A DNA stretch of 64,000 nt from Pseudomonadota bacterium (GCA_021835845.1 JAKBJU010000005.1:36505-100504), one strand, 5' to 3'; positions 18,616 through 41,742 are shown, numbered from the stretch's first letter. The notes: a model not told the origin generated them from the letters alone. Made by a program: numbers and translations.

Positions 18616-18622
18616 GGCTGCC

Positions 18623-19536: not shown

Positions 19537-19551
19537 TGTAACGGAAGAAAC

Positions 19552-20850: not shown

Positions 20851-20854
20851 TCCT

Positions 20855-23563
20855 ATGGGGGATTCCTGGCTGAATGGTGCGAATGCGGCTTATGTCGATG
20901 CGCTTTTCGGCGATTACCTCGAGAATCCGGATTCCGTTCCGCAGGGCTGGCGCAGCCGCTTCGCCCAGTTGCCCCAGCCGGAAATGGTGGCGCCATCGGA
21001 CCGCAGGCAGATTTCGGTGCTGCAGCTCATCAATGCCTACCGCTTCCTGGGGCTGCGCCAGGCCGAACTCGACCCCCTGAAGCACATCGAAAAACCGGCG
21101 ACCCCCGAACTCGATCCGGCTCATTACGGCCTTGTTGATGCCGACATGGATGTCGTTTTCGACACGGGTTCTTTCGTTGGGCCGGAAAAAGCGACATTGC
21201 GGGATATTCTGGATGCGCTGAAGAAAACCTATTGCGGTTCGCTCGGCGTCGAATACATGTACATCAGCGAAAATGCTCAGAAGCGCTGGATACAAGCGAG
21301 GCTGGAAGGCAGCCTTTCCCAGCCGGATTTTTCTCCTAAATACCGCAAGCGCATTTTGCAGAGGCTGACCGAAGCCGAGACGCTGGAGCGCTATCTGCAT
21401 GTTCGCTATGTCGGGCAGAAGCGTTTTTCGCTGGAGGGTGGAGACAGCCTGATTCCGCTTCTTGACAGGCTGTTGCAGCGTGCAGGATCGAATGGCGTAC
21501 GTGAAGTCGTGATCGGCATGGCCCACCGGGGAAGGCTTAACGTGCTGGTCAACACCATGGGAAAGATGCCGACGGAGCTTTTCTCCGAGTTCGAGGGGAA
21601 GGAAGCGGTCGAACTGAGTTCGGGGGACGTCAAGTATCACCAGGGATTCTCCTCCGACATCATGACAGAAGGCGGCCCCATGCACGTGACGCTTGCCTTC
21701 AATCCTTCGCATCTCGAAATCGTCAATCCGGTGGTCGAAGGCTCGGTACGCGCGAGGCAGCATCGGCGCAAGGATTTCGATGGAAAGCAGGTGCTGCCCA
21801 TCCTGATCCATGGGGATGCCGCATTTTCCGGCCAGGGCGTGGTCATGGAAACGCTCAACCTTTCCAAGACGCGAGGCTATGGCACCGGCGGCACGGTTCA
21901 CGTCATCATCAACAACCAGATCGGCTTCACCACATCCGACCCCAGGGATACCCGTTCCACCATCTACTGCAGCGATGTGGGGAAAATGGTGGAAGCGCCG
22001 ATTTTTCACGTCAATGCGGACGACCCGGAAGCGCTCCTGATGGCAACCGAGATTGCTTTCGACTTCAGGAACGAATTCCAGAAGGACGTGATCATCGACA
22101 TGGTCTGTTTCAGGCGTCACGGACACAACGAGCAGGATGAGCCGCTCGTGACGCAGCCGCTCATGTACAAGATCGTCAACGCTCACCCCGGCACGCTCAG
22201 GCGCTATGCGGAAAAGCTCGAAAAAGCCGGCGTCATCGGAAAGGGAGAAGCAGACAAGATGGCCGAGGATTTCAGGGCGGCCATGGACAGGGGAGAACAT
22301 CCCAATCCCGATTTCCTCAAGGGGGTGAAAAACCCGCATTCCTCGGACTGGTCCAGATTCCGCGGCACAAAATGGAACGAGCATGGCGACACCTCGATCG
22401 GGATTGACGATCTGAAGCGGCTTTCCGCGAAATTGACCGAGATTCCGGACAACTTCAGGCTTCACCCCAGGGTTGAAAAAATCATTTCAGACAGACGCGA
22501 GATGGGACAGGGGAAGATTCCGCTCGACTGGGGAATGGCGGAGAACCTCGCTTATGCCACGCTTCTGGAAGCGGGGTTTCCGGTCAGGATTTCCGGCCAG
22601 GACGTGGGGCGAGGCACTTTCTTCCACAGACATGCCGTGCTGCATGATCAGAACAGGGAGAGATGGGACGAGGGAATCTACATTCCGCTGCAGCATATTG
22701 CAGCAGGGCAGCCGGATTTCGCCGCGATAGATTCGGTTCTTTCGGAAGAAGCGGTGCTCGGTTTCGAATACGGCTATGCGACTGCAGAGCCGAACGAACT
22801 GGTGATCTGGGAAGCGCAGTTCGGCGATTTCGCCAACGGCGCACAGGTCGTGATTGACCAGTTCATCACCTCCGGAGAAGCAAAATGGGGCAGATTGTGC
22901 GGGCTCGTCATGATGCTGCCGCACGGCCATGAAGGCCAGGGTCCCGAGCATTCATCCGGACGCCTCGAGCGCTACCTGCAGCTGTGCGCGGACTACAATA
23001 TCCAGGTCTGCGTACCCTCCACGCCTGCCCAGATGTTCCATCTTTTGCGCAGACAGATGCTCCGCCCCTACCGCAGACCGCTTGTTCTGTTCACGCCGAA
23101 AAGCCTGCTGAGGCACAAGGATTCGGTGTCCAGGATCGAGGAGCTTGCGGAAGGGAAATTCCAACCCGTGACCGGGGAAACCGAGCCCGTAATCGAAGCG
23201 GAAAAAGTCAGGCGCGTCGTATGCTGCGCGGGGAAAGTGTATTTCGATCTAGTCAATGCGAGACGGGAAAAGCAAATCACCGATATCGCCATCGTCAGGA
23301 TCAATCAGCTCTATCCCTTCCCTCACGACGACTTCAAGGCGATGCTCGCGCGTTATGGCAATGCACGGGAAGTGCTGTGGTGCCAGGAAGAGCCGAAGAA
23401 CCAGGGGGCATGGCGTCATCTCGAACATTATCTTCTCAGGCACCTTTCGCCCGAGCAAAAGCTTCTTTCATCGATGCGCCCATCTTCCGCTTCCCCGGCT
23501 GCGGGCTATTATGCAAAATATCTGGCAAGGCAGAAGGAACTGGTCGACGCCGCCTTTGCCTGA
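20855..23563 (+). CDS. sucA: 2-oxoglutarate dehydrogenase E1 component
   Basis: 902 aa. Motifs: [51 protein letters not shown]. Confidence 0.95.
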
Positions 23564-23579
23564 ACCATTCGGAGGGATC

Positions 23580-24707
23580 ATGCTGATCGAAGTCAAAGTG
23601 CCCCAGCTTTCGGAATCCGTATCTGAGGCCACCCTGCTTTCCTGGCACAAACGGGAAGGCGATTATGTCGAGCGCGGGGAGAACCTGATCGACATCGAAA
23701 CCGACAAGGTCGTCCTGGAATTGCCTGCGGCCCAGGCCGGCGTGCTCTCGAAAATAGTGAAGGAAGAGGGGGCCGTGGTGACGAGCGGTGAAGTCATCGC
23801 CATGCTGGATGCGGCAGGGGAAAGACCAAAGCTGGAGCAGGCGTCAGCCGAACCCGAGAGGCCTGTCCTCATGCCTGCCGCGAAAAAGCACGCGGCGGAA
23901 CTCGGCGTCGATGTCTCTGGCATGCGCGGCACGGGACGGGGTGGTCGCATCACCAAGGCCGATGTGATGCTTCTCAAGCGGGAAGAGGCCATTCCCGAAA
24001 GCGGGCAAAGGGCACAAAGGCGCGTGCCGATGTCCCGCATCAGGGCAAGGGTTGCGCAAAGGCTGCTCGAATCCCAGAGAAATGCCGCAATCCTCACCAC
24101 CTTCAACGAAGTCAGCATGCGTGCAGTCGTCGACCTGCGCAACCGCTACAGGGAGCGGTTCGAAAAAGAGCACGGCATCAAGCTCGGATTCATGTCCTTT
24201 TTCGTCAAGGCCGCGGTTTCCGCCCTCAAGCAGTTTCCCGTGCTCAATGCCTCGATAGAAGGCAATGACATCGTTTACCATGATTATTACGATATCGGCA
24301 TTGCGGTCGGAACGGAACGGGGTCTCGTCGTGCCCGTGCTGCGCAATGCGGATTCCCTTTCCTTCGAGGATATCGAAAAGGGTATCGCCGACTTCGGCAA
24401 ACGCGCAAAGGAAGGAAAGCTTGCCGTGGACGAACTCGAGGGAGGGACATTTTCGATCACGAACGGCGGTATTTTCGGTTCGATGCTTTCCACCCCCATC
24501 ATCAATCCGCCGCAGAGCGCGATTCTCGGCATCCATGCGATGAAAGACAGACCTGTCGTCGAAAATGGCGAGATCGTCATTCGCCCGATAATCTATCTTG
24601 CGCTCTCCTACGATCACAGGCTCATAGACGGACGGGAAGCAGTCCAGGCTCTGGTTGCGATCAAGGAAGATCTGGAGGATCCGGCCAGGCTTCTTCTGGA
24701 GCTCTGA
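23580..24707 (+). CDS. sucB: Dihydrolipoyllysine-residue succinyltransferase (E2o)
   Basis: ATG at 23580 after GGAGGG. Lipoyl site [12 protein letters not shown]. Catalytic motif [13 protein letters not shown]. Confidence 0.95.
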
Positions 24708-24708
24708 A

Positions 24709-26127
24709 ATGAAAGCATACGATGTCGCCGTGATCGGCGCAGGCCCCGGCGGCTACGTTGCGGCGATTCGCTGCGCTCAGCTGGGGTTGAGGACGGTCTG
24801 CATCGACGATCGCGAAAAGGACGGCAAGCCAGCGCTCGGAGGAACCTGTCTCAATGTGGGCTGCATCCCGTCCAAGGCGCTGCTCGAATCCTCGGAAAAT
24901 TACGAAAAGGCCAGGATGGAATATGCTTCCCACGGCATCCTGATCAAGGAAATGGCTGTCGATCTAGCCAAAATGCAGGCGAGGAAGAGCAGTATCGTCG
25001 ATGCCCATACCAGCGGGATTGCCTTTCTTTTCAGAAAGAACGGGGTCGAATCGATCCTGGGGCGCGCCCGCCTCAAAAACACCGGTGAGCATTGCATCCT
25101 TGAAGTTGCCTCGGGAGGCGGAACAGCGCGCCTGGAGGCGAAGCACGTCATCATCGCGACAGGGTCTTCCCCAAGAAAACTGGAAGGCGTAACTTTCGGG
25201 AACAGGATAGTCGACAGTAGCGGGGCGCTCGCATTCGAGGAAATTCCGAAAAAACTGGGAATCATCGGGGCAGGCGTAATCGGACTCGAACTCGGCAGCG
25301 TATGGCGGCGACTGGGGAGCGAAGTGGTGCTGCTCGAAGCCTCGCCGGAATTTCTCCCCTCTGCCGACGAGAAAGTTTCGAAGGAAGCGCTGCGGCAATT
25401 TCGCAAGGAGGCGGGATGGACGATCAATCTCGGGATAAAGTTATTGTCTGTAGAAGAGATAGGATCGTCAGTTAAAGTGATATATGAGAATTATGACGGG
25501 GTGATTGAGCAGGATTTCGACCGGCTGATCGTCGCCGCAGGCAGGATCCCGAGTTCGAAGGCTGTCGTGGATGACCATCTGGGGCTTGCGATCGACGACA
25601 AAGGCTTCATTGAAGTCGACAGGCATTGCAGGACGAATCTGCCGAATGTCTATGCCATCGGGGACGTCGTGCAAGGTGCGATGCTCGCGCACAAGGCTTC
25701 CGAAGAAGGTGTAACGGTTGCGGAATCGATCGCGGGCCAGAAGCCGGAAGTCGATCCCCATCTCGTGCCCTGGGTCATCTATACTTCCCCCGAAATTGCC
25801 TGGGTGGGGAAGACGGAGCGGCAGCTCAAATCGGAGGAGATAGAATACCGTGCCGGGCAATTCCCGTTTTCGGCCAACGGCAGGGCGCAGGCGCTGGGGG
25901 ACGCGCGGGGTTTCGTCAAGGTGCTGGCGGATGCGAAAACGGACAGCGTGCTTGGCGTCCACATCATCGGCCCTTTCGCGTCAGAGCTGATTTCAGAGGC
26001 AGTGGTCGCAATGGCCTTCTCGGCCTCCAGCGAGGATATCGCGCGCACGATACACGCCCACCCTTCGCTTAGCGAGGCGCTGCATGAAGCATCTCTTGCA
26101 GTAGAGGGACGGGCACTACACATTTGA
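24709..26127 (+). CDS. lpdA: Dihydrolipoyl dehydrogenase (E3)
   Basis: MKAYDVAVIGAGPGGY, redox disulfide GGTCLNVGCIPSK, C-terminal HAHPSLSE. Confidence 0.95.
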   Translation: MKAYDVAVIGAGPGGYVAAIRCAQLGLRTVCIDDREKDGKPALGGTCLNVGCIPSKALLESSENYEKARMEYASHGILIKEMAVDLAKMQARKSSIVDAHTSGIAFLFRKNGVESILGRARLKNTGEHCILEVASGGGTARLEAKHVIIATGSSPRKLEGVTFGNRIVDSSGALAFEEIPKKLGIIGAGVIGLELGSVWRRLGSEVVLLEASPEFLPSADEKVSKEALRQFRKEAGWTINLGIKLLSVEEIGSSVKVIYENYDGVIEQDFDRLIVAAGRIPSSKAVVDDHLGLAIDDKGFIEVDRHCRTNLPNVYAIGDVVQGAMLAHKASEEGVTVAESIAGQKPEVDPHLVPWVIYTSPEIAWVGKTERQLKSEEIEYRAGQFPFSANGRAQALGDARGFVKVLADAKTDSVLGVHIIGPFASELISEAVVAMAFSASSEDIARTIHAHPSLSEALHEASLAVEGRALHI

Positions 26128-29130: not shown

Positions 29131-30333
29131 ATGTTTGCCGACCGAATTTTGTCAGGAATGCGCCCAACGGGGCACCTTCATCTCGGCCATTATCACGGTG
29201 TTCTCAAAAACTGGATCAAGTTGCAGCACGAACACCCCTGCCTGTTCTTCGTTGCGGACTGGCACGCACTGACCACGCATTACGATACCCCGGAGGTGAT
29301 CGGCGATAGCGTATGGGACATGCTGATCGATTGGCTTGCGGCAGGGGTCGATCCGGCGCAGGCCACGCTGTTCATCCAGTCCAGGGTGCCTGAGCATGCC
29401 GAGTTGCACCTGCTTCTTTCCATGATCACCCCCCTGGGATGGCTGGAAAGGGTTCCAACCTACAAGGATCAGCAGCAAAACATGGGCGAAAAAGATCTCG
29501 CCACTTACGGATTCCTGGGTTACCCGCTCCTGCAAAGCGCAGACATCCTGATCTACCGCGCGACCCATGTGCCGGTCGGAGAGGATCAGGTGCCGCATAT
29601 TGAATTCACGCGCGAAATTGCACGGCGATTCAATCATATTTATGGGCGAGAAGTCGGGTTCGAGGAAAAGGCCAGGGATGCCGTGAAGAAGCTGGGGTCC
29701 AAGAAGGGGAGGCTGTATACAGAATTCAGGGTGCGCTTTCAGGAGCAGGGCGATGTGGACGCGCTGGAAGCTGCGAAATCGCTTCTGGACGAACAGCAGA
29801 ACCTGAGTGCCGGTGACAGGGAACGTCTGTACGGCTATCTTGAAGGAGGCGGAAAAATGATCCTTGTGGAGCCTCAGTCCATGCTGACGAGCGCCTCAAG
29901 AATGCCGGGGCTTGACGGGCGCAAGATGTCCAAGTCGTACGGCAATACCATTTCACTGAGGGAAGATCCGGTTAGCGTGGAAAAAAAAATCAGAACCATG
30001 CCCACAGACCCGGCAAGGATAAGGCGCACCGATCCAGGGGATCCCGAGAAATGCCCGGTTTGGCAATTTCACAGCGTTTATTCGGATGAAGCGACCTGCG
30101 ACTGGGTCAAGAAAGGATGCCAGAGCGCTGCGATAGGATGCATCGAATGCAAGCAGCCCGTCATCGATGCTGTGCTCAAGGAACAGGAACCTATGAGGGA
30201 GCGAGCCCAGCACTTTCTCGACGATCCGGTTCTGGTCCGAAACATCATTGCAGACGGCTGTGAAAGGGCGAGGCGCCTTGCGCAGGAAACCATGCGCGAA
30301 GTTCGTGAAGCCATGGGGCTGGACTACAGTTGA
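29131..30333 (+). CDS. trpS: Tryptophan--tRNA ligase (long form)
   Basis: GMRPTGHLHLGHY (HIGH) and KMSKS. 400 aa. Confidence 0.92.
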   Translation: MFADRILSGMRPTGHLHLGHYHGVLKNWIKLQHEHPCLFFVADWHALTTHYDTPEVIGDSVWDMLIDWLAAGVDPAQATLFIQSRVPEHAELHLLLSMITPLGWLERVPTYKDQQQNMGEKDLATYGFLGYPLLQSADILIYRATHVPVGEDQVPHIEFTREIARRFNHIYGREVGFEEKARDAVKKLGSKKGRLYTEFRVRFQEQGDVDALEAAKSLLDEQQNLSAGDRERLYGYLEGGGKMILVEPQSMLTSASRMPGLDGRKMSKSYGNTISLREDPVSVEKKIRTMPTDPARIRRTDPGDPEKCPVWQFHSVYSDEATCDWVKKGCQSAAIGCIECKQPVIDAVLKEQEPMRERAQHFLDDPVLVRNIIADGCERARRLAQETMREVREAMGLDYS

Positions 30334-31094
30334 TCGTCGCAAAGATCCATGGCGAGGCGATCCTGGAATTGCCCCAGGATCTTTATATTCCACCTGAAGC
30401 GCTCGAAATCGTTCTGGATACCTTCGAGGGCCCGCTCGACCTTCTGCTTTATCTCATCCGCAAGCACAATCTCGACATCCTCGATATTTGCATGGCGGAA
30501 CTCACCCGGCAGTATCTGGCCTATATCAATGCCGCGAGAGAGCGCCACGAACTTGCAGCCGAATACCTGCTGATGGCGGCTCTTCTGATCGAAATCAAAT
30601 CCAGAATGCTGCTCCCCAAGCACGCAGAAATGGAGGCAGAGGAGGATCCTCGGGCGGAACTCGCCAGGCGGCTGCTCGAATACGAGAAAATCAAGCAGGC
30701 TGCGATTACGCTTGATGCTCTGGAACAGGCTGGGCGAGATTTTCTATTGCCTAACGTTCCCAGAGACTGGCTCGATATCCCGGAATTTCCCGGGGTCGAG
30801 CCTGAAGATCTGAGGCGGGCTTGGATGAGCGTTGCTTCTCGGGTGAAAAGGATGGATTCGCACAAGGTGGAACGCGAGGAACTCTCCGTCCGCGAACACA
30901 TGGCGAGAATTCTGAAAAAACTACAGGGGCAGAACGCTGCCGAATTCGCCGAATTGTTCGAAGCTGGCGCGGGGCTTGCCGTCCTCATCGTGTCATTTCT
31001 TGCTCTGCTCGAACTCGCGCGCGAAAGTTTGGTTTCGATTGTTCAGACTGATGCTTTCGGGACGATCTATGTGAAGGCGAACAATGAATTCTGA
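30330..31094 (+). CDS. scpA: Segregation and condensation protein A
   Basis: LDTFEGPLDLLLYLIRKHNLDILDI. The TTG start overlaps the trpS stop. Confidence 0.88.
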   Translation: MIVAKIHGEAILELPQDLYIPPEALEIVLDTFEGPLDLLLYLIRKHNLDILDICMAELTRQYLAYINAARERHELAAEYLLMAALLIEIKSRMLLPKHAEMEAEEDPRAELARRLLEYEKIKQAAITLDALEQAGRDFLLPNVPRDWLDIPEFPGVEPEDLRRAWMSVASRVKRMDSHKVEREELSVREHMARILKKLQGQNAAEFAELFEAGAGLAVLIVSFLALLELARESLVSIVQTDAFGTIYVKANNEF

Positions 31095-31623
31095 CGAAGC
31101 CAGGATGGTCGTCGAAACGGCATTGCTGACTACTGAAGAAGCCATTCCCCTGGTTGAACTGGCCAGGCTGTTCGACGGCGAAATGGCGCCTCATGATATC
31201 GAGAATATGCTTTCTGATCTGCGCTACAAGTGGGCAGACTCCGGTCTCGAACTGGTCGAGGTGTCAAGCGGCTGGCGCTTCAGAACGAGACCGGAAATGC
31301 AAAAATTTCTCGATCGCCTTGCTCCCAAAAAGCCGCAGCGCTATTCCAGAGCGGCACTGGAAACGCTTGCCATCATCGCCTACAGGCAGCCTGTCACGAG
31401 GGGGGATATCGAAGAAATCCGGGGGGTTGTGGTTTCCACGCAGATTCTGAAAATGTTCGAATCGAGATGCTGGATAGAGGTGGTCGGGCATCGCGATGCA
31501 CCCGGCAGGCCTTCGCTTTATGCAACGACATCGAGGTTCCTGGATGATCTCAATTTGAGATCAATTTCCGATTTGCCGCCACTACAAAACATAGAGCCTC
31601 AACTCGAGCACCATGACACTTAA
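31084..31623 (+). CDS. scpB: Segregation and condensation protein B
   Basis: LSRAALETLAIIAYRQPVTRGDIEEIRGV..GRPSLYATT..FL. Confidence 0.88.
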   Translation: MNSDEARMVVETALLTTEEAIPLVELARLFDGEMAPHDIENMLSDLRYKWADSGLELVEVSSGWRFRTRPEMQKFLDRLAPKKPQRYSRAALETLAIIAYRQPVTRGDIEEIRGVVVSTQILKMFESRCWIEVVGHRDAPGRPSLYATTSRFLDDLNLRSISDLPPLQNIEPQLEHHDT

Positions 31624-31687
31624 TATTTTGGGAAACTAAAGTTTCATTGCTTATCGCTAAAACAGATAAAATTAAGAGAACTAACGC

Positions 31688-31717
31688 TTGACCCGAAAAC
31701 TATCCCATAGTTATACT
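31688..31717 (+). promoter_or_regulatory. Candidate sigma-70 promoter TTGACC-N18-TATACT in the ACIII leader
   Basis: Hexamers read directly from the sequence. The 18-nt spacer is suboptimal. The candidate lies in an AT-rich 0.5-kb non-coding leader. Confidence 0.3.
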
Positions 31718-31795
31718 TCAGAAAAATATGCTGACAGAGCCGGGTCGATGGCTCGTCGGCAATAATAATCAAGGTAGGTTTAATGAGGAGGGAGC

Positions 31796-31939
31796 ATGAA
31801 GGTCAAGTCTAGATGCAACGTTCATGTTGCCCAGGAACTTCGATATCTGTGTCTGTCTTGTACAGGTCGGCATTTCCTTCCCGCCATTTTTTCGCAATAC
31901 CAAAAAATTTCAACAGTAGTTGTCGATGCTGCGAGGTAA
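31796..31939 (+). CDS. Unannotated 47-codon ORF with a very strong Shine-Dalgarno (GAGGAGGGAGC-ATG)
   Basis: MKVKSRCNVHVAQELRYLCLSCTGRHFLPAIFSQYQKISTVVVDAAR*. Below the ORF-track size cutoff. Three Cys residues (C7, C19, C22). Confidence 0.35.
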   Translation: MKVKSRCNVHVAQELRYLCLSCTGRHFLPAIFSQYQKISTVVVDAAR

Positions 31940-32133
31940 CGTGCTTTCCTTGATGGGGAATATTTCGTAGCACCCGCTTTTAACTATCATTATCATTATC
32001 GTTTTGCAATTGGTGGTGAGGCATAAGGCCGCATGCCTTGCTGGTGGGGTGATCGGTGTAGGCTGAATTTCGAATGGTCAAATTCAATGGATATCATTTT
32101 ATGACTTGCTTTAATACTCTTAGGACGGGAAAC

Positions 32134-32742
32134 ATGATCCATCGTTTGCTGGCGGCGCTGTGTTTTGCTTTCCTTTTTGGTGCTGCTGCTGGTGCGGAAC
32201 CTTTCGTGCAGGGAGGCCCCATCGGGTCACAGACTCCTGATGGTTATAATGCGTTGGGGCCGGTAGTCAAGCAACCCATCGAGTTTCCCCATTACAGGCA
32301 TGCACGCGACATGGGGATCAACTGCATGTACTGCCATACGGGTGCAAGGCGCGGTTATGTGTCGGTGATTCCAAGGATCGACAAATGCATTGGGTGTCAT
32401 CAAAACATCGAATCGGTCAGGAATAAACCCAGGATCAAGAAGCTGTTTGAATATTGGGACAAGAAGGAGCCCATTCCTTGGAAAAAGGTCAATGACCTTC
32501 CGGATTATGTCAGATTCAACCATGAGCGTCATATACAGCGTTTCTATTTTAGGCAGAACAGGCCGGTACGAGAGGTGTGTGGATATTGCCATGGCGACGT
32601 TGCCAACATGACCGTCGACAGGCGCGTCAAGGCGCTGTCTATGGGTTGGTGTATTAGCTGTCACCAGAAGGACCACAAAGAAAGCGATACGAACCTGAAA
32701 ACAAGCCACGGCCCGGGAGAATGCTGGCAGTGTCACAAGTAA
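32134..32742 (+). CDS. actA: Alternative Complex III pentahaem cytochrome c subunit ActA
   Basis: Five CxxCH sites: CMYCH, CIGCH, CGYCH, CISCH, CWQCH. The signal/anchor MIHRLLAALCFAFLFGAAAGA starts at the ATG at 32134. The ORF-track start at 32074 adds 20 non-signal residues. Confidence 0.85.
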   Translation: MIHRLLAALCFAFLFGAAAGAEPFVQGGPIGSQTPDGYNALGPVVKQPIEFPHYRHARDMGINCMYCHTGARRGYVSVIPRIDKCIGCHQNIESVRNKPRIKKLFEYWDKKEPIPWKKVNDLPDYVRFNHERHIQRFYFRQNRPVREVCGYCHGDVANMTVDRRVKALSMGWCISCHQKDHKESDTNLKTSHGPGECWQCHK

Positions 32743-32805
32743 GGGTTTGCGGTACCAATCGCGGACGTATTTCCATCCAAAAATTAGCTATGGGAAGATT
32801 TGGTT

Positions 32806-35022
32806 ATGAGTGATAGTGGCATTAATCGCAGGGATTTTCTGAAAGTGCTTGGGCTGGGCGGAAGCTCCCTCGCGCTCACGGGATGCGGAAACACAGACAT
32901 TCGGTCAGGTGACGAGGTCATTATGCCGAACGTTCACCCCGAAGATTTTGTGGTGCCGGGTCTTAGCGTTTTCTATGCATCAACCTGCACTCAATGTGGC
33001 TCTGCATGCGGTGTCATGGGGCGCGTCCGCGAAGGGCGTGTGCTCAAGATGGAAGGCAATCCCGAGTCGAAGATCAGCGGTGGGAAAATTTGCGGGCTGG
33101 GACAGGCGGCAGTCCAGGTTCAGTATAACCCCGATCGCTTGACCCAGCCGATGATGAAAGTGGGGAGTAGTCTTCAGCCTGTCAGCTGGGACAAGGCGAT
33201 GGCAATGCTTGAAGAGAAGACGGGGCCCAAGAGCGGCATCAATGGCGATGAATTTGCATTCGTGACTGGCGCCATGAGCGGCCACCTCAAAGTCCTGGCG
33301 CAGAACTACCTGGATAGCCTGGGTTCCAAGAATCATTTTGTTTACGAGGCGCTTTCCCCTGCAGTCGGTTTTGCTGCGAACAAGCAAGTTTATGGCGTTG
33401 ACATGCCTAGATTGCGTTTCGACAAGGCAAAGCTGGTCGTCTCCTTCGGAAGCGATTTTCTCGGAACCGGTGCATCCCCCGTTCATTTCGCTGCCGAATA
33501 TGCCAAATTCAGGAAGGCGCCGCGTGGAACGCTGATCCAGATCGAACCCAAAATGACCATGACTGGCGCGAATGCCGATCGCTGGATCCCGATCATCCCC
33601 GGGACGGAAGGCGTGTTTGCGCTGGGTGTGGCCAATCAGCTTCTCAAGCACGGCGATTTTTCCAAAACCGTATCTGTGGATATAGTCAACCTCGTTGGCA
33701 AGTACGATCCAGACACAGTCAGCGGCATTACGGGTGTGAGCTCGGATTTGATTGGGCATTTGGCGGGGTTGCTTTGGGAGAAGTCACCGAGTCTCGTTAT
33801 TTCTGGCGCATCCGTCGAAGGACATGTTCATGGCGTTCAGAATGCGTCAGCGATCCAGATTCTCAATAGAATACTGGGCAATGTGGGCAAAACTGTTGAT
33901 GGTCAAGCGCAATCGCCTTTCCCGCAACTCGCGCCTGCAACAGGAAGCTTCGCATCCTTGAAGGCGATGAATGATGGAATGGGCGCTGGCACATACAAGG
34001 CTGTCTTTATCTACGGCGCAAATCCAGTATTCACAACACCCAGTTTTATGGGATTTAGGGATAACCTCAGAAAAGTGCCTTTCAAGGTGGCTTTTGTCAA
34101 CGCGATCGACGAAACCGCAGAAGAATGCGATCTCGTGTTGCCCATCTACACTGCAGTCGAGGATTTTGGCTCGCATATCGCCTGGTATCAGCCAGAGGGG
34201 GTCGAGATCACCATGCAGCAGCCTCTCATGGAAAAGCTTTATTCGGATACCCGCTCCATGGGCGATATCATGCTCGACCTCGTCAAGCAGCGCCGTGCCG
34301 ACGAATACAAAAACTGGCCAGATTTCCGCTCCTATCTGAAAACTGCGGTTGTCAACATCAAGCCCGCAGTCAAATACACGGATACTGACGAGCATTTCTG
34401 GTACGACACTCTGAGTCGTGGCGTGATTCATGTCGATGCGCCGCAACAGCAGATCGCGGAGAGCTTTTCAACAGAAATGCTTGACCTTCCGACGACGATA
34501 AATTCACCCGATCCAAAGTTTCCGTTCTATCTGATTCCATCCGAACGGCATTATTTCAGGGATGGACGTCATGCCAACTGCGGATGGCTGCAGGAATCGC
34601 CGGATCCGCTGACCACCGTGGTTTGGGATTCGTGGGCTGAAATTCACCCCAAAACCGCGGAGAGCATGGGTATCAAGGAAGGGGATTATCTCGAGATTTC
34701 TTCCCAGAATGGTACGCTGAAGGTAAAAGCCTATCTCTTCCCGGGCATACATCCTGACGCGATTTCGATTCCGCTTGGGCAGGGGCACGAATCGCTCGGG
34801 CGTTTTGCCAAGGGAGTCGGGGTGAATCCTTTCAGGATTCTGAATCCGGTTTTCGAGAAGGATACAGGGGAACTCGCCATGTACGGCACGCGGGTTTCGG
34901 TGAAGAAAACGGCAGAATCCGAAATTGTTGTCAAGGACGAAGGTCCTGTCAGTACGCAAATGGGGCGCAAACTGGTTGTGACGTTACCTGCTGACGTCGC
35001 TCAGCTTTCCAAGGAGATTTAA
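32806..35022 (+). CDS. actB1: ACIII ActB1: Tat-exported molybdopterin-oxidoreductase-fold subunit
   Basis: MSDSGINRRDFLKVLG (twin-Arg). N-terminal FeS motif CTQCGSACGV..ICGLG. 738 aa with MopB-like layout. Confidence 0.85.
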   Translation: MSDSGINRRDFLKVLGLGGSSLALTGCGNTDIRSGDEVIMPNVHPEDFVVPGLSVFYASTCTQCGSACGVMGRVREGRVLKMEGNPESKISGGKICGLGQAAVQVQYNPDRLTQPMMKVGSSLQPVSWDKAMAMLEEKTGPKSGINGDEFAFVTGAMSGHLKVLAQNYLDSLGSKNHFVYEALSPAVGFAANKQVYGVDMPRLRFDKAKLVVSFGSDFLGTGASPVHFAAEYAKFRKAPRGTLIQIEPKMTMTGANADRWIPIIPGTEGVFALGVANQLLKHGDFSKTVSVDIVNLVGKYDPDTVSGITGVSSDLIGHLAGLLWEKSPSLVISGASVEGHVHGVQNASAIQILNRILGNVGKTVDGQAQSPFPQLAPATGSFASLKAMNDGMGAGTYKAVFIYGANPVFTTPSFMGFRDNLRKVPFKVAFVNAIDETAEECDLVLPIYTAVEDFGSHIAWYQPEGVEITMQQPLMEKLYSDTRSMGDIMLDLVKQRRADEYKNWPDFRSYLKTAVVNIKPAVKYTDTDEHFWYDTLSRGVIHVDAPQQQIAESFSTEMLDLPTTINSPDPKFPFYLIPSERHYFRDGRHANCGWLQESPDPLTTVVWDSWAEIHPKTAESMGIKEGDYLEISSQNGTLKVKAYLFPGIHPDAISIPLGQGHESLGRFAKGVGVNPFRILNPVFEKDTGELAMYGTRVSVKKTAESEIVVKDEGPVSTQMGRKLVVTLPADVAQLSKEI

Positions 35023-35024
35023 AA

Positions 35025-35873
35025 GTGTCGATTACGAATCTTTTGAACAACTGGTCTTTCTACAGGAAAAAGCGTCCTTATCAGGGGCAATACGATCTCA
35101 ATAGACAGTACAGCGAGTACAAGTGGGCAATGGCCCTGGATCTTGACATCTGCACGGGCTGTAATGCATGCACGACTGCCTGCTATGCAGAAAACAATCT
35201 TCCGGTGGTTGGCAAGGAGCGCTTCAAGCATGGACATGTGATGCACTGGATCAGGATTGAGCGCTACTGGGATGAGAAAATGGGCGAGTTTCCTGAGCAA
35301 GGCGCATCTTTCCTACCCATGATGTGCCAGCAATGCGAAGAGGCCCCTTGCGAGACTGTTTGTCCTGTCGGTGCAACCAGTCACACCAACGACGGCTTGA
35401 ATTCCCAGAATTATCATCGGTGTGTCGGTTCCCGGTACTGCTCGGTAAACTGCCCTTACAAGGTCAGATACTTCAATTTCTGGAATTATCCTTCTACTGC
35501 TTGGCCGGCACCTCTTCCGGATCAGCTTAACCCCGATGTGACAGTCCGCACCAAGGGAATTATGGAAAAGTGCACGTTCTGTGTCCAGAGACTGAATGAA
35601 GCCAAGAGCCGCGCCAGAACGGAATATCGCCTCGTCAGGGACGGAGAAGTCGTGCCTGCTTGCGTCCAGGCTTGCCCGACAAGCGCGATAACCTTTGGCA
35701 ATATAGTTGACCCGAAGTCGAAAGTTGCAATGATGTGGAAGAATCAGCAGGTCGATCTTTACAAAGACATGCAGGAAAAGGACAACTCGGTTCGTGGATA
35801 TAGGATATTGGAGGATTTAAGACCGTTCCCGTCAGTGATGTACTTGGAGCGAGTAAGGGATATGGAAGCATAG
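35025..35873 (+). CDS. actB2: ACIII ActB2: 4Fe-4S cluster subunit (PsrB/DmsB-like), encoded separately from B1
   Basis: CTGCNACTTAC, CQQCEEAPCETVCP, CVGSRYCSVNCP, CTFCVQR..ACVQACP. Confidence 0.88.
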   Translation: MSITNLLNNWSFYRKKRPYQGQYDLNRQYSEYKWAMALDLDICTGCNACTTACYAENNLPVVGKERFKHGHVMHWIRIERYWDEKMGEFPEQGASFLPMMCQQCEEAPCETVCPVGATSHTNDGLNSQNYHRCVGSRYCSVNCPYKVRYFNFWNYPSTAWPAPLPDQLNPDVTVRTKGIMEKCTFCVQRLNEAKSRARTEYRLVRDGEVVPACVQACPTSAITFGNIVDPKSKVAMMWKNQQVDLYKDMQEKDNSVRGYRILEDLRPFPSVMYLERVRDMEA

Positions 35874-35940
35874 GATTGATCTCACCTTAACTGCTTGTGT
35901 TCCTCTTATAGGTAATGTTTTTACTTCAAGGAATTTTGTA

Positions 35941-37398
35941 ATGGTCAATACATACGAAGAAACAGAAGTCGCCGTAGAGAAGCGATTTGTCCCGAAACCG
36001 CTTGACATAAATGCAGATATCGCATGGGCAAAAATCAATAAGGACATACTCCGCAGTTTGGAGCGTCCAAGGCCAATATTCTGGGTGATTTTCATTGCAT
36101 CGTTTGCCTTGTTCTTGGTTGGTGTCTCTTGCGAAGTTTATCAATATCAAACAGGCATGGGTGTAGCCAATCTGAATAACCCGCAGGTGTGGGGGCTTTA
36201 TATTGCGACATTCATCTGGTGGATTGGAATGGGGCACTCCGGAACGCTGCTTTCAGCCCTTCTGCATATCATGCATGCAGACTGGCGTAAGCCGATTTAC
36301 CGATATTCCGAAGCGATGACCACATTCACACTGCTGACTGCTGCGCTCTTCGTCATGGTTCACTTGGGCAGGATTTGGCAGTTCTACTACGTGGTGGCCT
36401 ACCCGAATGAAAGATGGACATGGCCTAACTTTCAGTCTCCCCTGGTCTGGGACGCAACCGCGATCGGAACCTACCTCACTTCGTCGCTCCTGTTCCTTTA
36501 CATCGGGATGATTCCGGATCTGGCTATTTGTCGTGACAATGCCATTGGAATCCGCAAGAAGTTGTATACCTTCATGTCGCTTGGCTGGATGGGGACCGAT
36601 CGGCAATGGGCCAACTTCCGCGTCACTTATTTGACTCTGGCCTGCTTTCTGATGCCCCTTGCTGTTTCCGTGCATTCCATCGTTTCGACCGATTTTGCTG
36701 CATCACAGCAACCCGGTTATCACATTACGTCCTTTCCTCCCTACTTCGTCGCAGGGGCTATATATTCAGGGCTGGCTGTGATTATTACTCTCTTCATTGT
36801 CCTTCGATATACGTTCCGATTCGAGGAATATATGACCATGCCGATTCTCGAAAAGCTCGCAAAATTAACTTTTGCAGCGGGAATGGTGTGGACTTACCTG
36901 AATCTCATCGAATATGCCACGACATGGTATGGCAATGACATGTACGCCAAGCAGGCCTTGATATACCGCGCTACAGGTCCGTTTGCTCCCGAGTGGTGGA
37001 TGATGAACTTCCTTGGGTCGGTGCTTCCTTTTGCACTCACCTTCAAAAGGGTAAGGGCGAGTATTCCTGTAATGCTTTTCATGTCTATCTTCATCAATTT
37101 CGGGATGTGGCTGGAACGCTGGATGATTATTTCCCCGACCTTGGCACACGGAATTTATCCCTGGACCTGGGACGACGATCAATGGCCAAGCTTTGTCCAA
37201 TGGGGAATTGTTGCCGGCAGCTTTGGCTGGTTCAACATGCTCTTCATGTTGTATTGCAAGATCTTTCCTTCAGTTTCAATGTATGAGGTAAAGGAAATGC
37301 TTCATGAGCGTCGATTCTTTAAGAGTACCAACGTAGCAACTGCTCGGGATTCCGCGATTAATCCAGATTTGGCAGTTGAGGGAGGTCTTGCATCATGA
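35941..37398 (+). CDS. actC: ACIII ActC: NrfD/PsrC-like quinol-interacting membrane subunit
   Basis: 485 aa, about 10 TM helices, with NrfD-like WGLYIATFIWWIGMGHSGTL. Confidence 0.85.
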   Translation: MVNTYEETEVAVEKRFVPKPLDINADIAWAKINKDILRSLERPRPIFWVIFIASFALFLVGVSCEVYQYQTGMGVANLNNPQVWGLYIATFIWWIGMGHSGTLLSALLHIMHADWRKPIYRYSEAMTTFTLLTAALFVMVHLGRIWQFYYVVAYPNERWTWPNFQSPLVWDATAIGTYLTSSLLFLYIGMIPDLAICRDNAIGIRKKLYTFMSLGWMGTDRQWANFRVTYLTLACFLMPLAVSVHSIVSTDFAASQQPGYHITSFPPYFVAGAIYSGLAVIITLFIVLRYTFRFEEYMTMPILEKLAKLTFAAGMVWTYLNLIEYATTWYGNDMYAKQALIYRATGPFAPEWWMMNFLGSVLPFALTFKRVRASIPVMLFMSIFINFGMWLERWMIISPTLAHGIYPWTWDDDQWPSFVQWGIVAGSFGWFNMLFMLYCKIFPSVSMYEVKEMLHERRFFKSTNVATARDSAINPDLAVEGGLAS

Positions 37399-37919
37399 GT
37401 AAATCGCATATGCTCGCATTGTTTTCCGATTTCGATCAGGCCTCCGAGGCAATTCGGGACCTTAAATCCTCAAATTTTGAGGGATTCAAATTGGATGACG
37501 TGACGCTAAAATCGCCGATCGAGCACCCCGAGATTGAGGAGTTGCTTGGAAAGCGTCCAGTTTATGTCAGGATCTTCACCTTCTTTGGCGCTTTGTTCGT
37601 GCCGCTTCTGGGTTTCTTGTTTGTGGCTTCGTCGCAAGCAACCTTCCTGTTGCAGCCAAAAGGAGGTAAGCCGGTAATCCCCCTCCCGCCAAATTTTGTT
37701 CTGACCTATGAATTTTTTATTCTTGGGGGGGTGTACATGACGGTGCTCGGTTTTTTTATCAGCGCGAAATTGCCGATGAAAAGAAATAAGCTGTACAACG
37801 CCCGGGTTTCCGAAGATCAAATCGGCATTCTCATCAAAGCAGAGGACTCTATAATGCCGGCCATAAAGGATCTGTTTACAAGACACAACCCATTGGAAAT
37901 CATGGGAGGGGATAACTAA
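37395..37919 (+). CDS. actD: ACIII ActD (DUF3341)
   Basis: MLALFSDFDQASEAIRDLK.. followed by two TM helices. Start overlaps the actC stop (ATGA). Confidence 0.8.
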   Translation: MSKSHMLALFSDFDQASEAIRDLKSSNFEGFKLDDVTLKSPIEHPEIEELLGKRPVYVRIFTFFGALFVPLLGFLFVASSQATFLLQPKGGKPVIPLPPNFVLTYEFFILGGVYMTVLGFFISAKLPMKRNKLYNARVSEDQIGILIKAEDSIMPAIKDLFTRHNPLEIMGGDN

Positions 37920-38501
37920 ATGGTAAAGTTGCGATGGTTCGCAGTGATTGCAACACTTATTCCATCTGTTGCCGTGGCTTGGCCGTGGTCTACCGACATG
38001 ATGGATCAGATTAGCATCAAACCGCAGCATGGCCCGATGGGTGTTCGGCCTTTCCCGGAACATTCCGTACCCATTCCGAGCACCAAGACTTCGTCGCGGA
38101 TTGTTGACATGGACGAGGCCGATGCAACCAAGAATCCGGTTGCGGCAACGCCAGAATCGATCCATAACGGGATGAAACTGTTCGAGGTCATTTGTACTCC
38201 TTGCCACAATTATTCCGGAAAAGGTGACGGCCCCGTCGGCATGAAGTTGACATTGCAGCCTTTCGACCTGACTTCCGATCGCATTCAGCATGAGGTGACC
38301 GAAGGACACATTTTCGGCTACATGACGTTCGGAGGGGCAGTGATGCCTTCCTACGCGAATGATCTGTATCCGAACGAACGCTGGGATATCGTCAATTTCG
38401 TACGTCATGGTTTGCTGCAATACTCTCAGAACTGGCTCAAGACACATTACAGTGCTGACAAAGGCCACTATGACTATACGGACAAGGGCGGTAAACAATA
38501 A
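37920..38501 (+). CDS. actE: ACIII ActE monohaem cytochrome c
   Basis: Single CTPCH. N-terminal WPWSTDMMDQISIKPQ motif typical of ActE. Confidence 0.8.
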   Translation: MVKLRWFAVIATLIPSVAVAWPWSTDMMDQISIKPQHGPMGVRPFPEHSVPIPSTKTSSRIVDMDEADATKNPVAATPESIHNGMKLFEVICTPCHNYSGKGDGPVGMKLTLQPFDLTSDRIQHEVTEGHIFGYMTFGGAVMPSYANDLYPNERWDIVNFVRHGLLQYSQNWLKTHYSADKGHYDYTDKGGKQ

Positions 38502-38516
38502 AGGGGTAATGTAATT

Positions 38517-39524
38517 ATGGTTTCTTTTGCCAGCTGGTCTGTTTTGACCGTGGATTTCCTGATTGTTTTTTATTTGGCGTTTGGCGGAATAACGCTTGCC
38601 GCCTTATTGCACTTGGTGAATGCCAAGTGGCGTTATGATGTGAGATTCATAACCGTATCGTTCTTCTCCCTCTATCCGCTTGCATTTATCCTGTTGCTGA
38701 TACTGCTCTGGGGGGGCAAGACTACGTTTCCATGGGTTACCTCGATCGAACCAAAGCCGTTGTGGAATAATCTGACCTTCCTCGCGATTAGGGAAATCGT
38801 CGCCTTCATCATCATCGGCATTCTGGGCGCATTTTTTATAAAATATCAGGCGAGGGCGGACAAGGATCCGGACAGCAAGATCATATTTCGTAATGTGGCG
38901 CTGCTGATTCCATTTGCCTACGTGCTCTTTGGAACGATGTTCGCCTGGGATTACGAGATGACTCTGACTCCGTACTGGGGAAGTTCCATATATGCGATGT
39001 ATTTCTTCGTCAGTAATTTCGGCATGTTTCTTGCGTTCACGGTTACGCTGATTTATTTCCTGAATAACTCGGGTGCACTTACGAAGCCGATCGGCGACTA
39101 TGTATACAACTATCTTGCGCAAATGATGTTGGGATTTACCATTCTCTGGATTTACACCTTCTTCGCCCAATATTTGATCATTTGGTACGGCAATCTGCCT
39201 GACGAAACAGGGCGTATTGTCCATATGCAGTATGGAAATTACGGAGGACTCTTCTGGACTTTCTTTGCCATGAAATTCGTGTTTCCGTTCCTGATGCTGG
39301 TTTTTCCATTCAACAGGCATTGTATCTATTCGATCCTGGCTGTTGCTGCAAGCATCATGATTGGGACTTGGCTGGAGCGCTATACGTGGATTTCAGGAAC
39401 CTCCAATTCGGCCCATATGCCCATGACCTCTCTTTTCGACATCGGCGTCACGGCGATCGTTTTCGGAGCGGCATTCACCATTGTCAGAACGACCATGAAG
39501 AAATACAAGCTGATCAAGGCCTGA
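38517..39524 (+). CDS. actF: ACIII ActF membrane subunit
   Basis: 335 aa polytopic membrane protein in the last position of the act cluster. Confidence 0.75.
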   Translation: MVSFASWSVLTVDFLIVFYLAFGGITLAALLHLVNAKWRYDVRFITVSFFSLYPLAFILLLILLWGGKTTFPWVTSIEPKPLWNNLTFLAIREIVAFIIIGILGAFFIKYQARADKDPDSKIIFRNVALLIPFAYVLFGTMFAWDYEMTLTPYWGSSIYAMYFFVSNFGMFLAFTVTLIYFLNNSGALTKPIGDYVYNYLAQMMLGFTILWIYTFFAQYLIIWYGNLPDETGRIVHMQYGNYGGLFWTFFAMKFVFPFLMLVFPFNRHCIYSILAVAASIMIGTWLERYTWISGTSNSAHMPMTSLFDIGVTAIVFGAAFTIVRTTMKKYKLIKA

Positions 39525-39549
39525 TTCCGGAAAGTCTGCGGATCCAACA

Positions 39550-39582
39550 CCCGCCGCCTGCACAAGGTGGCGGGTTTTTTTT
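39550..39582 (+). terminator. Rho-independent terminator after actF
   Basis: Stem CCCGCCGCC / GGTGGCGGG (one G-U pair), 7-nt loop, followed by T8. Confidence 0.8.
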
Positions 39583-39619
39583 CGTCCATCGATCTGATAT
39601 CATTCGAGCGCTTCAGGTG

Positions 39620-39790
39620 TCCGGCTTCGTCATGAAGCCGGGTGAAACGGGAAACAGGTGAAATGCCTGTGCTGCCCCCGCAACGGTAAGAGAGCGTGAA
39701 CCCTCATGCTGCCACTGTGAATCATTTCATGGGAAGGCGATGGTTTTTTCTCGAGCCCGGAGACCGGCCTGGAACATTGCGAGGATGTCG
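39620..39790 (+). promoter_or_regulatory. Cobalamin (B12) riboswitch
   Basis: Conserved core GGTGAAACGGGAAACAGGTGAAATGCCTGTGCTGCCCCCGCAACGGTAAG (39641..39690). B12 box AGCCCGGAGACCGGCC (39754..39769). Lies directly upstream of btuB. The ends are approximate. Confidence 0.85.
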
Positions 39791-39906
39791 CGGGGATGCG
39801 GCAGGCCGGTGCCCATGCCTTTCGGATATGCGCTTTCCTGTCGTTGCTCCCGAGATTTCCATTATTGAATTCCGCATGCGGGGTCGCATGCGGCTCGGAG
39901 ACCAAT

Positions 39907-41742
39907 ATGAAGCGCCTTTTCCTGTTGTACCCTTTGCTGTCCTTGCCAGTCTGGGCTGACGACAATTCACTGTTCGACGGCAGCGAGATCGTCGTCACAG
40001 CATCCAGAATGGCCCAGCCTATCGACCAGTCCCTTGAAGACATATCGGTCATCACGCAGCAGGATATCCGCTCATCCGGCGCGACTGACGTGCTCACCCT
40101 GCTTCGCAATCTTGCAGGCGTTGAAGTTACGCAAAGTGGCGGCATCGGCAAGCAAAGCAGCATCTTCATGCGGGGCACCAATTCCGATCATGTGCTCGTG
40201 CTGCTCGATGGAGTTCGCATCGATGCTGCGACGAGCGGGACGTCCGAAGTCGATCAATTGATGCTCGATCAGATCGATCATATCGAAGTGGTGAGAGGCA
40301 ATGCCAGCAGCCTTTATGGCTCGTCTGCAATTGGCGGAGTGATCCAGATATTCACCAAGAAGGGGACTGGGAAGCCAAGCTTCAACTTCAGTTCGGGCTA
40401 TGGGTCCTACAATTCCAGGCAGCTTTCATCCGGGTTCGGAGGCGTGGTTGGAAACAATCAGTTCCAGATCCAGGCATCCAAGTATGCAACAGACGGAATT
40501 CCTTCCGTCAATACTGCCCTGGCTCCCCTTGCGAATCCGGCTGCAGATGGCTATTCCAACGTGTCCCTGTCCGCGAATGTGAGTCATCGTTTCAATGAAG
40601 ACCACAAACTATCCTTTTCGGGCTTTCAAAGCCGCGGCAACAATGCCTACGCCAACTACTCGGCTGCAACACCCTCGGATGCCTACAACAACATCTCATC
40701 CATCCAGAAACTGTCCCTGATAGAGGAGGACAGCATCACTCCCGACTGGAACAGCCGGTTGATGCTTGCCGATGGCAAGGACAATGAGCGGGATTTCCTG
40801 AACGGAGCACAGATCGATCTGTATCAGACCGACAACCAGCAGGCTTCCTGGCAGAATACGGTCACGCTCAATCCGGAGGGCAAGCTCCTGATGGGTGCGG
40901 AAAAACTCGATCAGCTGGTCTCATCCACCACGCTCTTCACGCAAACGAGGCGCAATGTGGACAGTCTTTTTGCCGGCTACGACGGAAACTATGGGGCAAA
41001 TCTGATTCAAGCAAATCTCAGGCAGGATGATTATTCCGACTTCGGCGCAGCCAATACCTGGCTCCTGGGCTATGGATACCGCTTCACCAGCGCATGGCGC
41101 GCCACGGCCAGTTATTCGACTGCATTCAAGGCACCCACGTTCAGTGACCTCTATTATCCGCTGTACTACGGATACCAGGGAAACCCGAATCTGCAGCCCG
41201 AGCGCTCGCGCAACGCGGAAGCGGGGCTCCATTATGACAAGGGCAGCCAGAAGGTCGATCTCATCTATTTCAGCAACAATATCAACAACCTGATTACCAT
41301 CAATGCTGCCGGCACCACCACGGTGAACATCAACCAGGCCAAGATAGACGGCGAAGAGCTGAGCTATGATGGAAAGTTCGGCGACACGGGGCTGACTGCC
41401 TCGCTGACAGCCCAGAATCCGAGAGATGCTCTGACAGGCCAGACCTTGCCGCTCAGAGCCAAGTTCTACTCGACTCTGGGCATGACGCAGCAATACGGAA
41501 AATTGCAGCTGGGCGGGCAGTGGCAACACGGCGGTTCTCGCGATGCCATGAACTATGTGGCTTATGTGCCAGTCACGCTGCAAAGCTACAATCTGGTCAA
41601 CCTGACTGCCAACTATGCCTGGACAAAGCACTGGAACGTCAATGCGCGCATCAGCAACCTGTTCAATCAGAATTACATGCTGGTCTATCCGTATAATACC
41701 TATGGCAGAACGGTCTTTGCGAGCGTGAATTACCAGCCCTGA
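39907..41742 (+). CDS. btuB: TonB-dependent cobalamin outer-membrane receptor
   Basis: Signal peptide MKRLFLLYPLLSLPVWA, TonB box SEIVVTASR, plug motifs, and a C-terminal aromatic barrel end. Sits behind the riboswitch. Confidence 0.88.
   Translation: MKRLFLLYPLLSLPVWADDNSLFDGSEIVVTASRMAQPIDQSLEDISVITQQDIRSSGATDVLTLLRNLAGVEVTQSGGIGKQSSIFMRGTNSDHVLVLLDGVRIDAATSGTSEVDQLMLDQIDHIEVVRGNASSLYGSSAIGGVIQIFTKKGTGKPSFNFSSGYGSYNSRQLSSGFGGVVGNNQFQIQASKYATDGIPSVNTALAPLANPAADGYSNVSLSANVSHRFNEDHKLSFSGFQSRGNNAYANYSAATPSDAYNNISSIQKLSLIEEDSITPDWNSRLMLADGKDNERDFLNGAQIDLYQTDNQQASWQNTVTLNPEGKLLMGAEKLDQLVSSTTLFTQTRRNVDSLFAGYDGNYGANLIQANLRQDDYSDFGAANTWLLGYGYRFTSAWRATASYSTAFKAPTFSDLYYPLYYGYQGNPNLQPERSRNAEAGLHYDKGSQKVDLIYFSNNINNLITINAAGTTTVNINQAKIDGEELSYDGKFGDTGLTASLTAQNPRDALTGQTLPLRAKFYSTLGMTQQYGKLQLGGQWQHGGSRDAMNYVAYVPVTLQSYNLVNLTANYAWTKHWNVNARISNLFNQNYMLVYPYNTYGRTVFASVNYQP

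Follow-up and report, generated by a model that had tools for sequence, protein, structure and literature searches.

Does a block of respiratory genes with deviating base composition, located between housekeeping genes, have to be seen as a recently acquired genomic island? The question is raised by a stretch of 64,000 nt from a Pseudomonadota bacterium (GCA_021835845.1, JAKBJU010000005.1, 36505-100504; in the following "the window"), in which a block of low G+C content (GC) with act genes lies between scpB and a cobalamin riboswitch (31624-39582). The act genes code for an Alternative Complex III (ACIII), and an initial annotation had explained the block as horizontal acquisition of a respiratory module. 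Our analysis leads to a different history: very probably, the block is a single operon encoding the ACIII variant of iron-oxidising Beta- and Zetaproteobacteria, which was inserted once in the distant past and has been inherited in place ever since. The operon is a further example of the architecture already known from Kato et al. 2015 (PMC4643136), and it is not a recent island.

Operon structure and boundaries

Seven co-directional open reading frames (ORFs) on the plus strand constitute a complete actA-B1-B2-C-D-E-F operon at 32134-39524 (Table 1). The raw ORFs span 32074-39524, but a start of actA at 32074 was rejected in favour of 32134, as one-nucleotide indels in two related loci (L010 and L002) break the longer frame. 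The stop codon of scpB and actA are separated by a gap of 510 nt (31624-32133) with a GC of 0.418. At the 3' end, the terminator was found in seven loci with compensatory changes in the stem and an invariant T8 run, including L004, a locus with different downstream genes. The space between actF and the terminator is too small for an ORF, and ActG is thus absent. The ORFs, their motifs and the matches to ACIII chains bear out the initial annotation with respect to the seven act genes in canonical order, and the same holds for the split of ActB into two genes, the missing ActG, the strong terminator and the B12 riboswitch. The leader had been described as 0.5 kb of AT-rich, non-coding DNA; its size and composition were correct, but it contains a promoter, a short ORF and a Fur-like box.

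Table 1 Features of the act operon and its borders; positions are counted from the first nucleotide of the window
Feature	Position	Strand	Characteristics
scpB	31084-31623		5' neighbour of the operon; stop codon at 31623
Sigma-70-type promoter	31688-31717	+	TTGACC-18 nt-TATACT; 65 nt past the scpB stop codon; 10/12 matches (promoter scan)
Shine-Dalgarno sequence and short leader ORF	31785-31939	+	GAGGAGGG; ATG at 31796, 47 codons
Fur-box-like triple hexamer	31985-32002	-	GATAAT-type; reverse complement GATAATGATAATGATAGT; fixed distance upstream of actA
Conserved non-coding block	32062-32133	+	~70 nt; directly adjoins the start codon of actA; one-nucleotide indels in L010 and L002
actA	32134-32742	+	Pentahaem cytochrome c; N-terminal signal or anchor; five CxxCH; Pfam cytochrome c3/c7
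actB1	32800-35022	+	Tat-exported MopB-fold subunit; probable start ATG 32806
actB2	35025-35873	+	Multi-cluster Fe-S subunit, corresponding to the C-terminal half of fused ActB; Pfam Fer4 families
actC	35941-37398	+	NrfD-like integral membrane subunit; predicted quinone interaction; Pfam NrfD
actD	37395-37919	+	Membrane subunit; two predicted transmembrane helices; Pfam PF11821 ActD, E = 1.1e-28
actE	37920-38501	+	Monohaem cytochrome c; one CxxCH; signal peptide without lipobox cysteine
actF	38517-39524	+	Second NrfD-like membrane subunit; 335 aa
Intrinsic terminator	39549-39583	+	11-bp stem (39549-39575), 8 G-C pairs, followed by T8 (terminator scan)
Cobalamin riboswitch	39598-39786		121 bits; 3' of the terminator
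btuB	39796-41742		Next gene 3' of the riboswitch

Insertion site in related genomes

A genome scan with ActB1 yielded 27 loci, eight of them with an ActB1 identity of at least 81% and each of these from a different species. Nine loci span the junction, namely seven of these eight and two metagenomic loci (L028 and L029); among the eleven relatives sampled, L003 and L013 were short or truncated contigs. Without exception, the junction-spanning loci (9/9, including L001, L002, L004, L005, L010 and L023) had the gene order Sua5-M50-trpS-scpA-scpB followed by act. The scpB-act arrangement was also recorded for L013, and on the overall count the operon was placed behind scpB in all eleven sampled relatives. 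On the 3' side, the relatives have the cobalamin riboswitch, a gene for a TonB-dependent receptor, Peripla_BP_2 and pyrG, in this order. The sub-group that branches deepest differs in that btuB is replaced by a kdp operon on the minus strand (kdpFABC, kdpDE), located between actF and Peripla_BP_2-pyrG (L004, 16754-20190; L032, 2984-9937). Two outgroups, Nitrosospira lacus and a contig encoding APS reductase and ATP sulfurylase (L030 and L031), have kept the upstream block through scpB, but act is absent and a parA-like gene comes next. The nearest pyrG outgroup has feoAB upstream. Distant carriers of the cluster, metagenome-assembled genomes (MAGs) of beta-, gamma- and alphaproteobacteria, have unrelated flanks.

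The act proteins of the window were 83-87% identical to those of the sister loci (81-89% among the sisters), the flank proteins 74-80% (74-77% among the sisters), and the act and flank distance matrices, calculated from protein identities, scale together. For this reason a replacement of the operon from outside the clade was rejected. For the pair of window and L023, the synonymous codon identity amounted to 0.75-0.93 for act and 0.80-0.88 for the flanks. ActC to ActF are 98-99.5% identical between these two loci despite about 10% of the conserved codons differing synonymously, thus the act genes are clearly functional and under strong purifying selection. Hallmarks of mobility were not observed: the 64-kb window has no tRNA genes, flanking repeats are short and at chance level, and the annotated neighbours are housekeeping genes with no integrase or transposase among them. 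Carriage of this subtype on plasmids was not found either; only canonical fused ActB (~26% identity) was present on 17 large plasmids. Because the scpB-act junction is shared at flank identities of 74-80%, the outgroups carry a parA-like gene at this site, distances are proportional and mobility hallmarks are missing, the history is that of a single ancient insertion. It was the ancestor of the clade that took up the operon, once and directly behind scpB, and inheritance has been vertical since.

The cluster probably arrived by transfer, and to this extent the initial view of an acquired respiratory module is supported by the outgroup junction without act; the insertion, however, is ancient. 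The initial annotation had also named a cluster at the same locus in the relatives, with a congruent history, as evidence to the contrary, and this is largely what we observed in the shared scpB junction and the proportional divergence of act and flanks.

Two observations concern the neighbouring genes. Behind the act terminator, the loci have kept the cobalamin riboswitch (103-121 bits). The TonB-dependent receptor following it is 92% identical in L023 vs 40-41% in L010 and L002 (riboswitch and receptor: window 39598-41742, L010 16778-18863, L002 16759-18815), which suggests an exchange of the receptor while the riboswitch remained in place. ScpB (window 31084-31623) is short in the clade, mostly 170-184 aa with one member of 160 aa, vs mostly 200-260 aa in the outgroups, and its C-terminal tail is missing just where the act insertion starts.

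Base composition and codon usage

The difference in composition between block and flanks, initially noticed on a small sample, was confirmed by the full computation, but it is not a mark of recent transfer. Compared with a background of 81 non-overlapping windows of equal size, the act block had a GC of 0.494 vs 0.570±0.013 (background minimum 0.547), a delta* of 94.7 vs 30.3±8.5, about three times the background, and a tetranucleotide correlation of 0.69 vs 0.95±0.01; it was the most deviant among 113 windows of its size. The GC at synonymous third codon positions (GC3s) was 0.565 in act vs 0.657 (Mann-Whitney p = 1e-4). The compositional edge is soft on the 5' side, where scpB, scpA and the M50 peptidase gene have a GC3s of 0.57-0.60, and sharp on the 3' side, with 0.589 in actF vs 0.671 in btuB. 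Amino acid composition accounts for about half of the GC deficit, calculated as the GC expected for each protein under host codon usage; the other half is synonymous.

Greedy ORF calls on the relatives were noisy, and the comparison was recomputed on strictly orthologous codons. The GC of first codon positions was 0.51-0.56 in act vs 0.58-0.62 in the flanks in every species, and second positions of act were likewise low. The four-fold degenerate sites (GC4) distinguished the loci: act and flanks had 0.600 and 0.718 in the window, 0.598 and 0.716 in L023 and 0.674 and 0.704 in L001, whereas six sister loci had 0.746-0.777 in act and 0.735-0.769 in the flanks. The delta* of act against the own flanks was 96-99 in the window and L023 vs 41-80 in the sisters, with 37-74 in upstream-vs-downstream controls. 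Because sisters with the same insertion have an act GC4 equal to that of their flanks, the low GC is no trace of the acquisition; the synonymous drop arose later, as a shift specific to the lineage of the window and L023. It is strand-symmetric, with A and T both increased, and codons ending in A, which the sisters avoid, are no longer avoided. Transcription-coupled C-to-T deamination was rejected as its cause on account of this symmetry. Relaxed codon selection under AT-biased mutation, i.e., drift in situ, may be the cause and is slightly favoured.

These values also bear on the interpretation as a recent acquisition, a new island still showing the composition of its donor. It would account for the block being the strongest compositional outlier of the window and for its sharp 3' edge, it agrees with the absence of act at the outgroup scpB junction, and the distribution of the family is patchy, its flanks being unrelated (PMC11412304; PMC10734462). 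Yet the same junction is present in relatives whose flank proteins are merely 74-80% identical, act and flanks show proportional distances and an equal synonymous divergence from L023, sisters with the same insertion have no GC4 deficit, the leader and the terminator are conserved throughout the clade, and tRNA genes, flanking repeats and an annotated integrase or transposase are missing. A recent arrival is therefore extremely improbable.

An allelic replacement within the clade, by which the operon in the common ancestor of the window and L023 was overwritten with a copy of lower GC from an unsampled member, deserves more consideration, even though we regard it as rather doubtful. The GC4 deficit is confined to these two loci, with L001 being intermediate, and a strand-symmetric shift is expected of imported DNA. 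The delta* between act of the window and act of the sisters was 52-101, compared with 29-63 among the sisters. L001 (6336-13070) becomes ever more divergent from the window (29131-35873) in the direction from trpS to actB2, the fraction of identical codons falling from 0.83 to 0.55; this divergence is synonymous as well as in amino acids, and for lpd, Sua5 and M50 the locus is as near to the window as L023. The comparison suggests a putative recombination breakpoint near trpS, within the clade. On the other hand, none of the 27 loci qualifies as donor, act protein distances between the window and the sisters are no larger than expected from the flanks, and the soft 5' edge reaches into scpB, scpA and M50, where GC3 is low in L001, too. 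A directional shift in situ would by itself give the synonymous divergence observed. A similar dip occurs independently in a MAG of Leptothrix ochracea (L006, 9351-16540): act has a GC of 0.529 vs 0.590 in the flanks and a GC3s lower by 0.105, as obtained with greedy ORF calls.

With respect to an ancient insertion inherited in place, the locus is a cautionary case. A strong compositional anomaly marks here neither a recent transfer nor the original acquisition, and only the comparison with sister species having the same insertion revealed this.

Subunits and predicted function

The subunits were compared with the solved ACIII of Rhodothermus marinus (6F0K), Flavobacterium johnsoniae (6BTM) and Roseiflexus castenholzii (6LOD) and with 8K9E, and all of them are homologous. 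The numbers of haems, the Tat motif and the transmembrane segments are in agreement with this assignment. ActA matched chain A of 8k9e, 6btm, 6f0k and 6lod (E = 3e-28 to 1.5e-20). ActB1 has a twin-arginine motif (RRDFLK) and three MopB Pfam domains above thresholds, and matched the N-terminal half of ACIII chain B (E = 1.2e-43), while ActB2 matched residues 790-1003 of 6f0k_B (E = 1.4e-73). The match of ActC to 6lod_C had an E value of 2.7e-101, and the other three solved ActC chains were also found. ActD matched 6lod_D weakly (E = 1e-3), and ActE matched chain E of 6f0k, 6lod and 6btm (E ≈ 1e-10). For ActF, Pfam and NCBIfam gave no match; the protein was identified by the ActF chains of the four solved complexes, with 6f0k_F as best match (E = 7.9e-19) besides 8k9e_F, 6btm_F and 6lod_F. 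It scores better against these chains than against ActC, of which it is a distant paralogue (24% identity over 238 aa, E = 2e-6). ActF is shorter than its counterparts (411-464 aa) and largely so at the N-terminus, since the alignment with 6f0k_F begins about 55 residues into the solved chain.

In ActB1, a CX2CX3CX27C motif (C63, C66, C70 and C98) was invariant in 23/23 members of the family alignment, whereas residues other than cysteine occupy these four positions in the solved ActB proteins. The residue aligned to the molybdenum (Mo)-ligating cysteine of ArrA is S, T, A or N across the family, with no cysteine or selenocysteine nearby; N is the residue of the solved, cofactor-less ActB. Since the position of the Mo ligand varies and the four cluster cysteines are invariant, ActB1 is most likely free of Mo, and an additional [4Fe-4S] cluster is probably bound. 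A function of ActB1 as an active molybdo- or tungsto-enzyme, with which the complex would oxidise or reduce some periplasmic substrate and not be a mere electron relay, is highly unlikely. Such an enzyme would be consistent with the four cluster cysteines at the N-terminus, which ActB1 has retained and solved ActB has lost, with an E value of 1.2e-39 against ArrA, nearly as good as against ACIII ActB, and with the three MopB domains. However, scores against the NCBIfam models of catalytic enzymes are far under the cut-offs, the ligand position is devoid of a cysteine or selenocysteine in its vicinity, and its variability led to the rejection of an active molybdoenzyme as the preferred interpretation. 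A further cysteine, Cys29, lies in a lipobox-like context (LALTGC) after the Tat motif and is also invariant in 23/23 family members, which makes the protein a candidate lipoprotein exported via Tat.

By homology to the solved complexes, the haems of ActE and ActA in the periplasm and the Fe-S clusters of the Tat-exported ActB2 would form an electron wire, to which ActB1 of this subfamily probably contributes the additional [4Fe-4S] cluster. The wire would link a soluble periplasmic carrier with the quinone site in the NrfD-like ActC, and ActC and ActF would constitute the membrane part that couples electron transfer to the proton gradient. The predicted function is a quinol:cytochrome c oxidoreductase activity, or its reverse.

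Relation to known complexes

The closest system is the ACIII-like cluster of iron oxidisers, known from Ferriphaselus, Sideroxydans, Gallionella, Mariprofundus and Leptothrix ochracea, which has the same gene order, a split ActB, the CX2CX3CX27C motif and no ActG. Kato et al. 2015 described the order, the split and the motif in ActB1 of Fe(II)-oxidising bacteria; they placed the cluster as a sub-clade in the ACIII-Qrc group and proposed a transfer between Beta- and Zetaproteobacteria (PMC4643136). In Sideroxydans ES-1 the cluster is induced by Fe(II), with a log2 fold-change of up to 6.84, and reverse electron transport was proposed (Zhou et al. 2022, PMC8788666). The statement of the initial annotation that ACIII-like clusters were proposed to link periplasmic carriers to the quinone pool in Fe(II) oxidisers holds in view of these two studies (PMC4643136, PMC8788666). 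The cluster occurs in about 55% of the Gallionellaceae iron oxidisers and all Nitrotoga (PMC10734462), and in 8/9 MAGs of L. ochracea, but in no other Leptothrix or Sphaerotilus (PMC11412304). Outside the clade of the window, the closest ActB1 proteins are those of MAGs of L. ochracea (59%) and Sideroxydans (57%); among the nearest carriers, gamma- and alphaproteobacterial MAGs are numerous. The operon of the window differs from this type in its clade-specific leader with promoter, leader ORF and Fur-like box, absent from carriers among Sideroxydans, Leptothrix and gammaproteobacteria, and in its host, an uncultured Burkholderiales lineage that is not a recognised iron oxidiser.

With the canonical ACIII the operon shares the Tat signal on ActB1 and the two NrfD-like subunits. 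It differs in the two genes for ActB, which is fused in the canonical complex (~26% identity of ActB1 to fused ActB), in the four cluster cysteines kept in ActB1 and lacking in solved ActB, in an ActF shorter by ~80-130 residues, in an ActE without lipobox cysteine and in the absence of both ActG and ActH from the operon. The Qrc menaquinone reductase (QrcABCD) of sulfate reducers has separate genes for the molybdopterin-like and Fe-S subunits, as has the window, and QrcA, QrcB and QrcC were the top NCBIfam models for ActA, ActB1 and ActB2. All three scores were under the cut-offs, however, with 66.6 vs 180 (QrcA), 274.7 vs 440 (QrcB) and 216.3 vs 400 (QrcC), and Qrc lacks ActD, ActE and ActF; on these grounds an assignment to Qrc was rejected.

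Leader region

An alignment of the leader from eight species (A1) revealed four conserved blocks in the gap of 510 nt (Table 1), and an Rfam search of the leader gave no family at E ≤ 1. The promoter hexamers and the neighbouring bases are invariant in the eight species. For the short ORF, translated from eight loci, conservation is limited to the Shine-Dalgarno sequence, which is perfect, the ATG and roughly the first 14 codons, and the length of the ORF varies from 30 to 56 aa in relatives. A conserved small protein was rejected for this pattern; the ORF is probably no protein gene but a translated leader. The triple hexamer is unique in the window, with 0.23 occurrences expected by chance, and was found in 11/12 syntenic loci, the window included, and in 0 distant carriers. 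The 19-bp Fur consensus of E. coli, GATAATGATAATCATTATC, had no match at ≤3 mismatches, the box having 4; because the strict search was empty, the box is called only Fur-like here. The block directly upstream of actA is regarded as non-coding because of the one-nucleotide indels in L010 and L002, and may be a second promoter or operator. The conserved leader provides concrete candidate sites for regulation of the operon.

We hypothesise that the operon could be regulated by iron via the Fur-like box. A more far-reaching proposal, in which the lineage would be an unrecognised iron-metabolising group with an ACIII-like operon under direct iron sensing through the invariant promoter, the translated leader ORF and a Fur-type operator, is speculative and in our judgement unlikely. 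If it were true, an altered strength or frequency of operon expression would lie behind the codon shift of the window and L023.

Host lineage and implications

Searches with PyrG and ScpB place the host in an uncultured Burkholderiales lineage, within a clade consisting solely of MAGs designated "Burkholderiales bacterium". The nearest named isolates are Sulfurirhabdus, Pelomicrobium, Sulfuricella and Sulfurimicrobium by PyrG (~80%) and Nitrosospira by ScpB (~64%).

Besides the divergence gradient of L001, several points weigh against the reading of an iron-oxidiser-type operon with a single insertion and inheritance in place. All relatives are MAGs, so that mis-binning or assembly errors are possible; the synteny, however, was observed within single contigs. 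The direction of electron flow is not readable from the sequence and could be from quinol to cytochrome c, or uphill from cytochrome c to quinone, as proposed for Fe(II) oxidisers. A cyc2-like gene is not present in the 64-kb window. Upstream of the operon lies a contiguous cluster of tricarboxylic acid (TCA) cycle genes (15085-26127) with mdh, sdhA, sdhB, gltA, sucA, lpd and probably also sucB; the set is indicative of a complete oxidative TCA cycle and bears on obligate lithoautotrophy of the host. Because a cyc2-like gene is missing in the window and the oxidative TCA cluster is full, calling the host an iron oxidiser is unsupported.

This operon type is a candidate marker of microaerophilic iron oxidation and reverse electron transport. 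The module has long been fixed in an uncultured lineage that does not belong to the recognised iron oxidisers, which widens the host range. Given this presence, the cluster alone is poor evidence for iron oxidation.

The window encodes a further multihaem protein, a pentahaem fusion of 678 aa (48149-50185, minus strand). Residues 11-416 correspond to the tri-haem cytochrome subunit of the membrane-bound dehydrogenases for alcohol, glucose and fructose (8gy2_B, E = 8e-106), and residues 431-660 to the di-haem thiosulfate dehydrogenase TsdA (4v2k_A, E = 1.5e-44). The fusion could act as a thiosulfate dehydrogenase with a direct connection to a quinone-reducing cytochrome module. Three proteins of cyclic di-GMP signalling are encoded within the 64 kb, all on the minus strand: a GGDEF protein with a zinc-sensing CZB domain (4011-5483), a PAS-GGDEF-EAL protein of 1236 aa (53333-57043) and a GGDEF protein (57163-58530).

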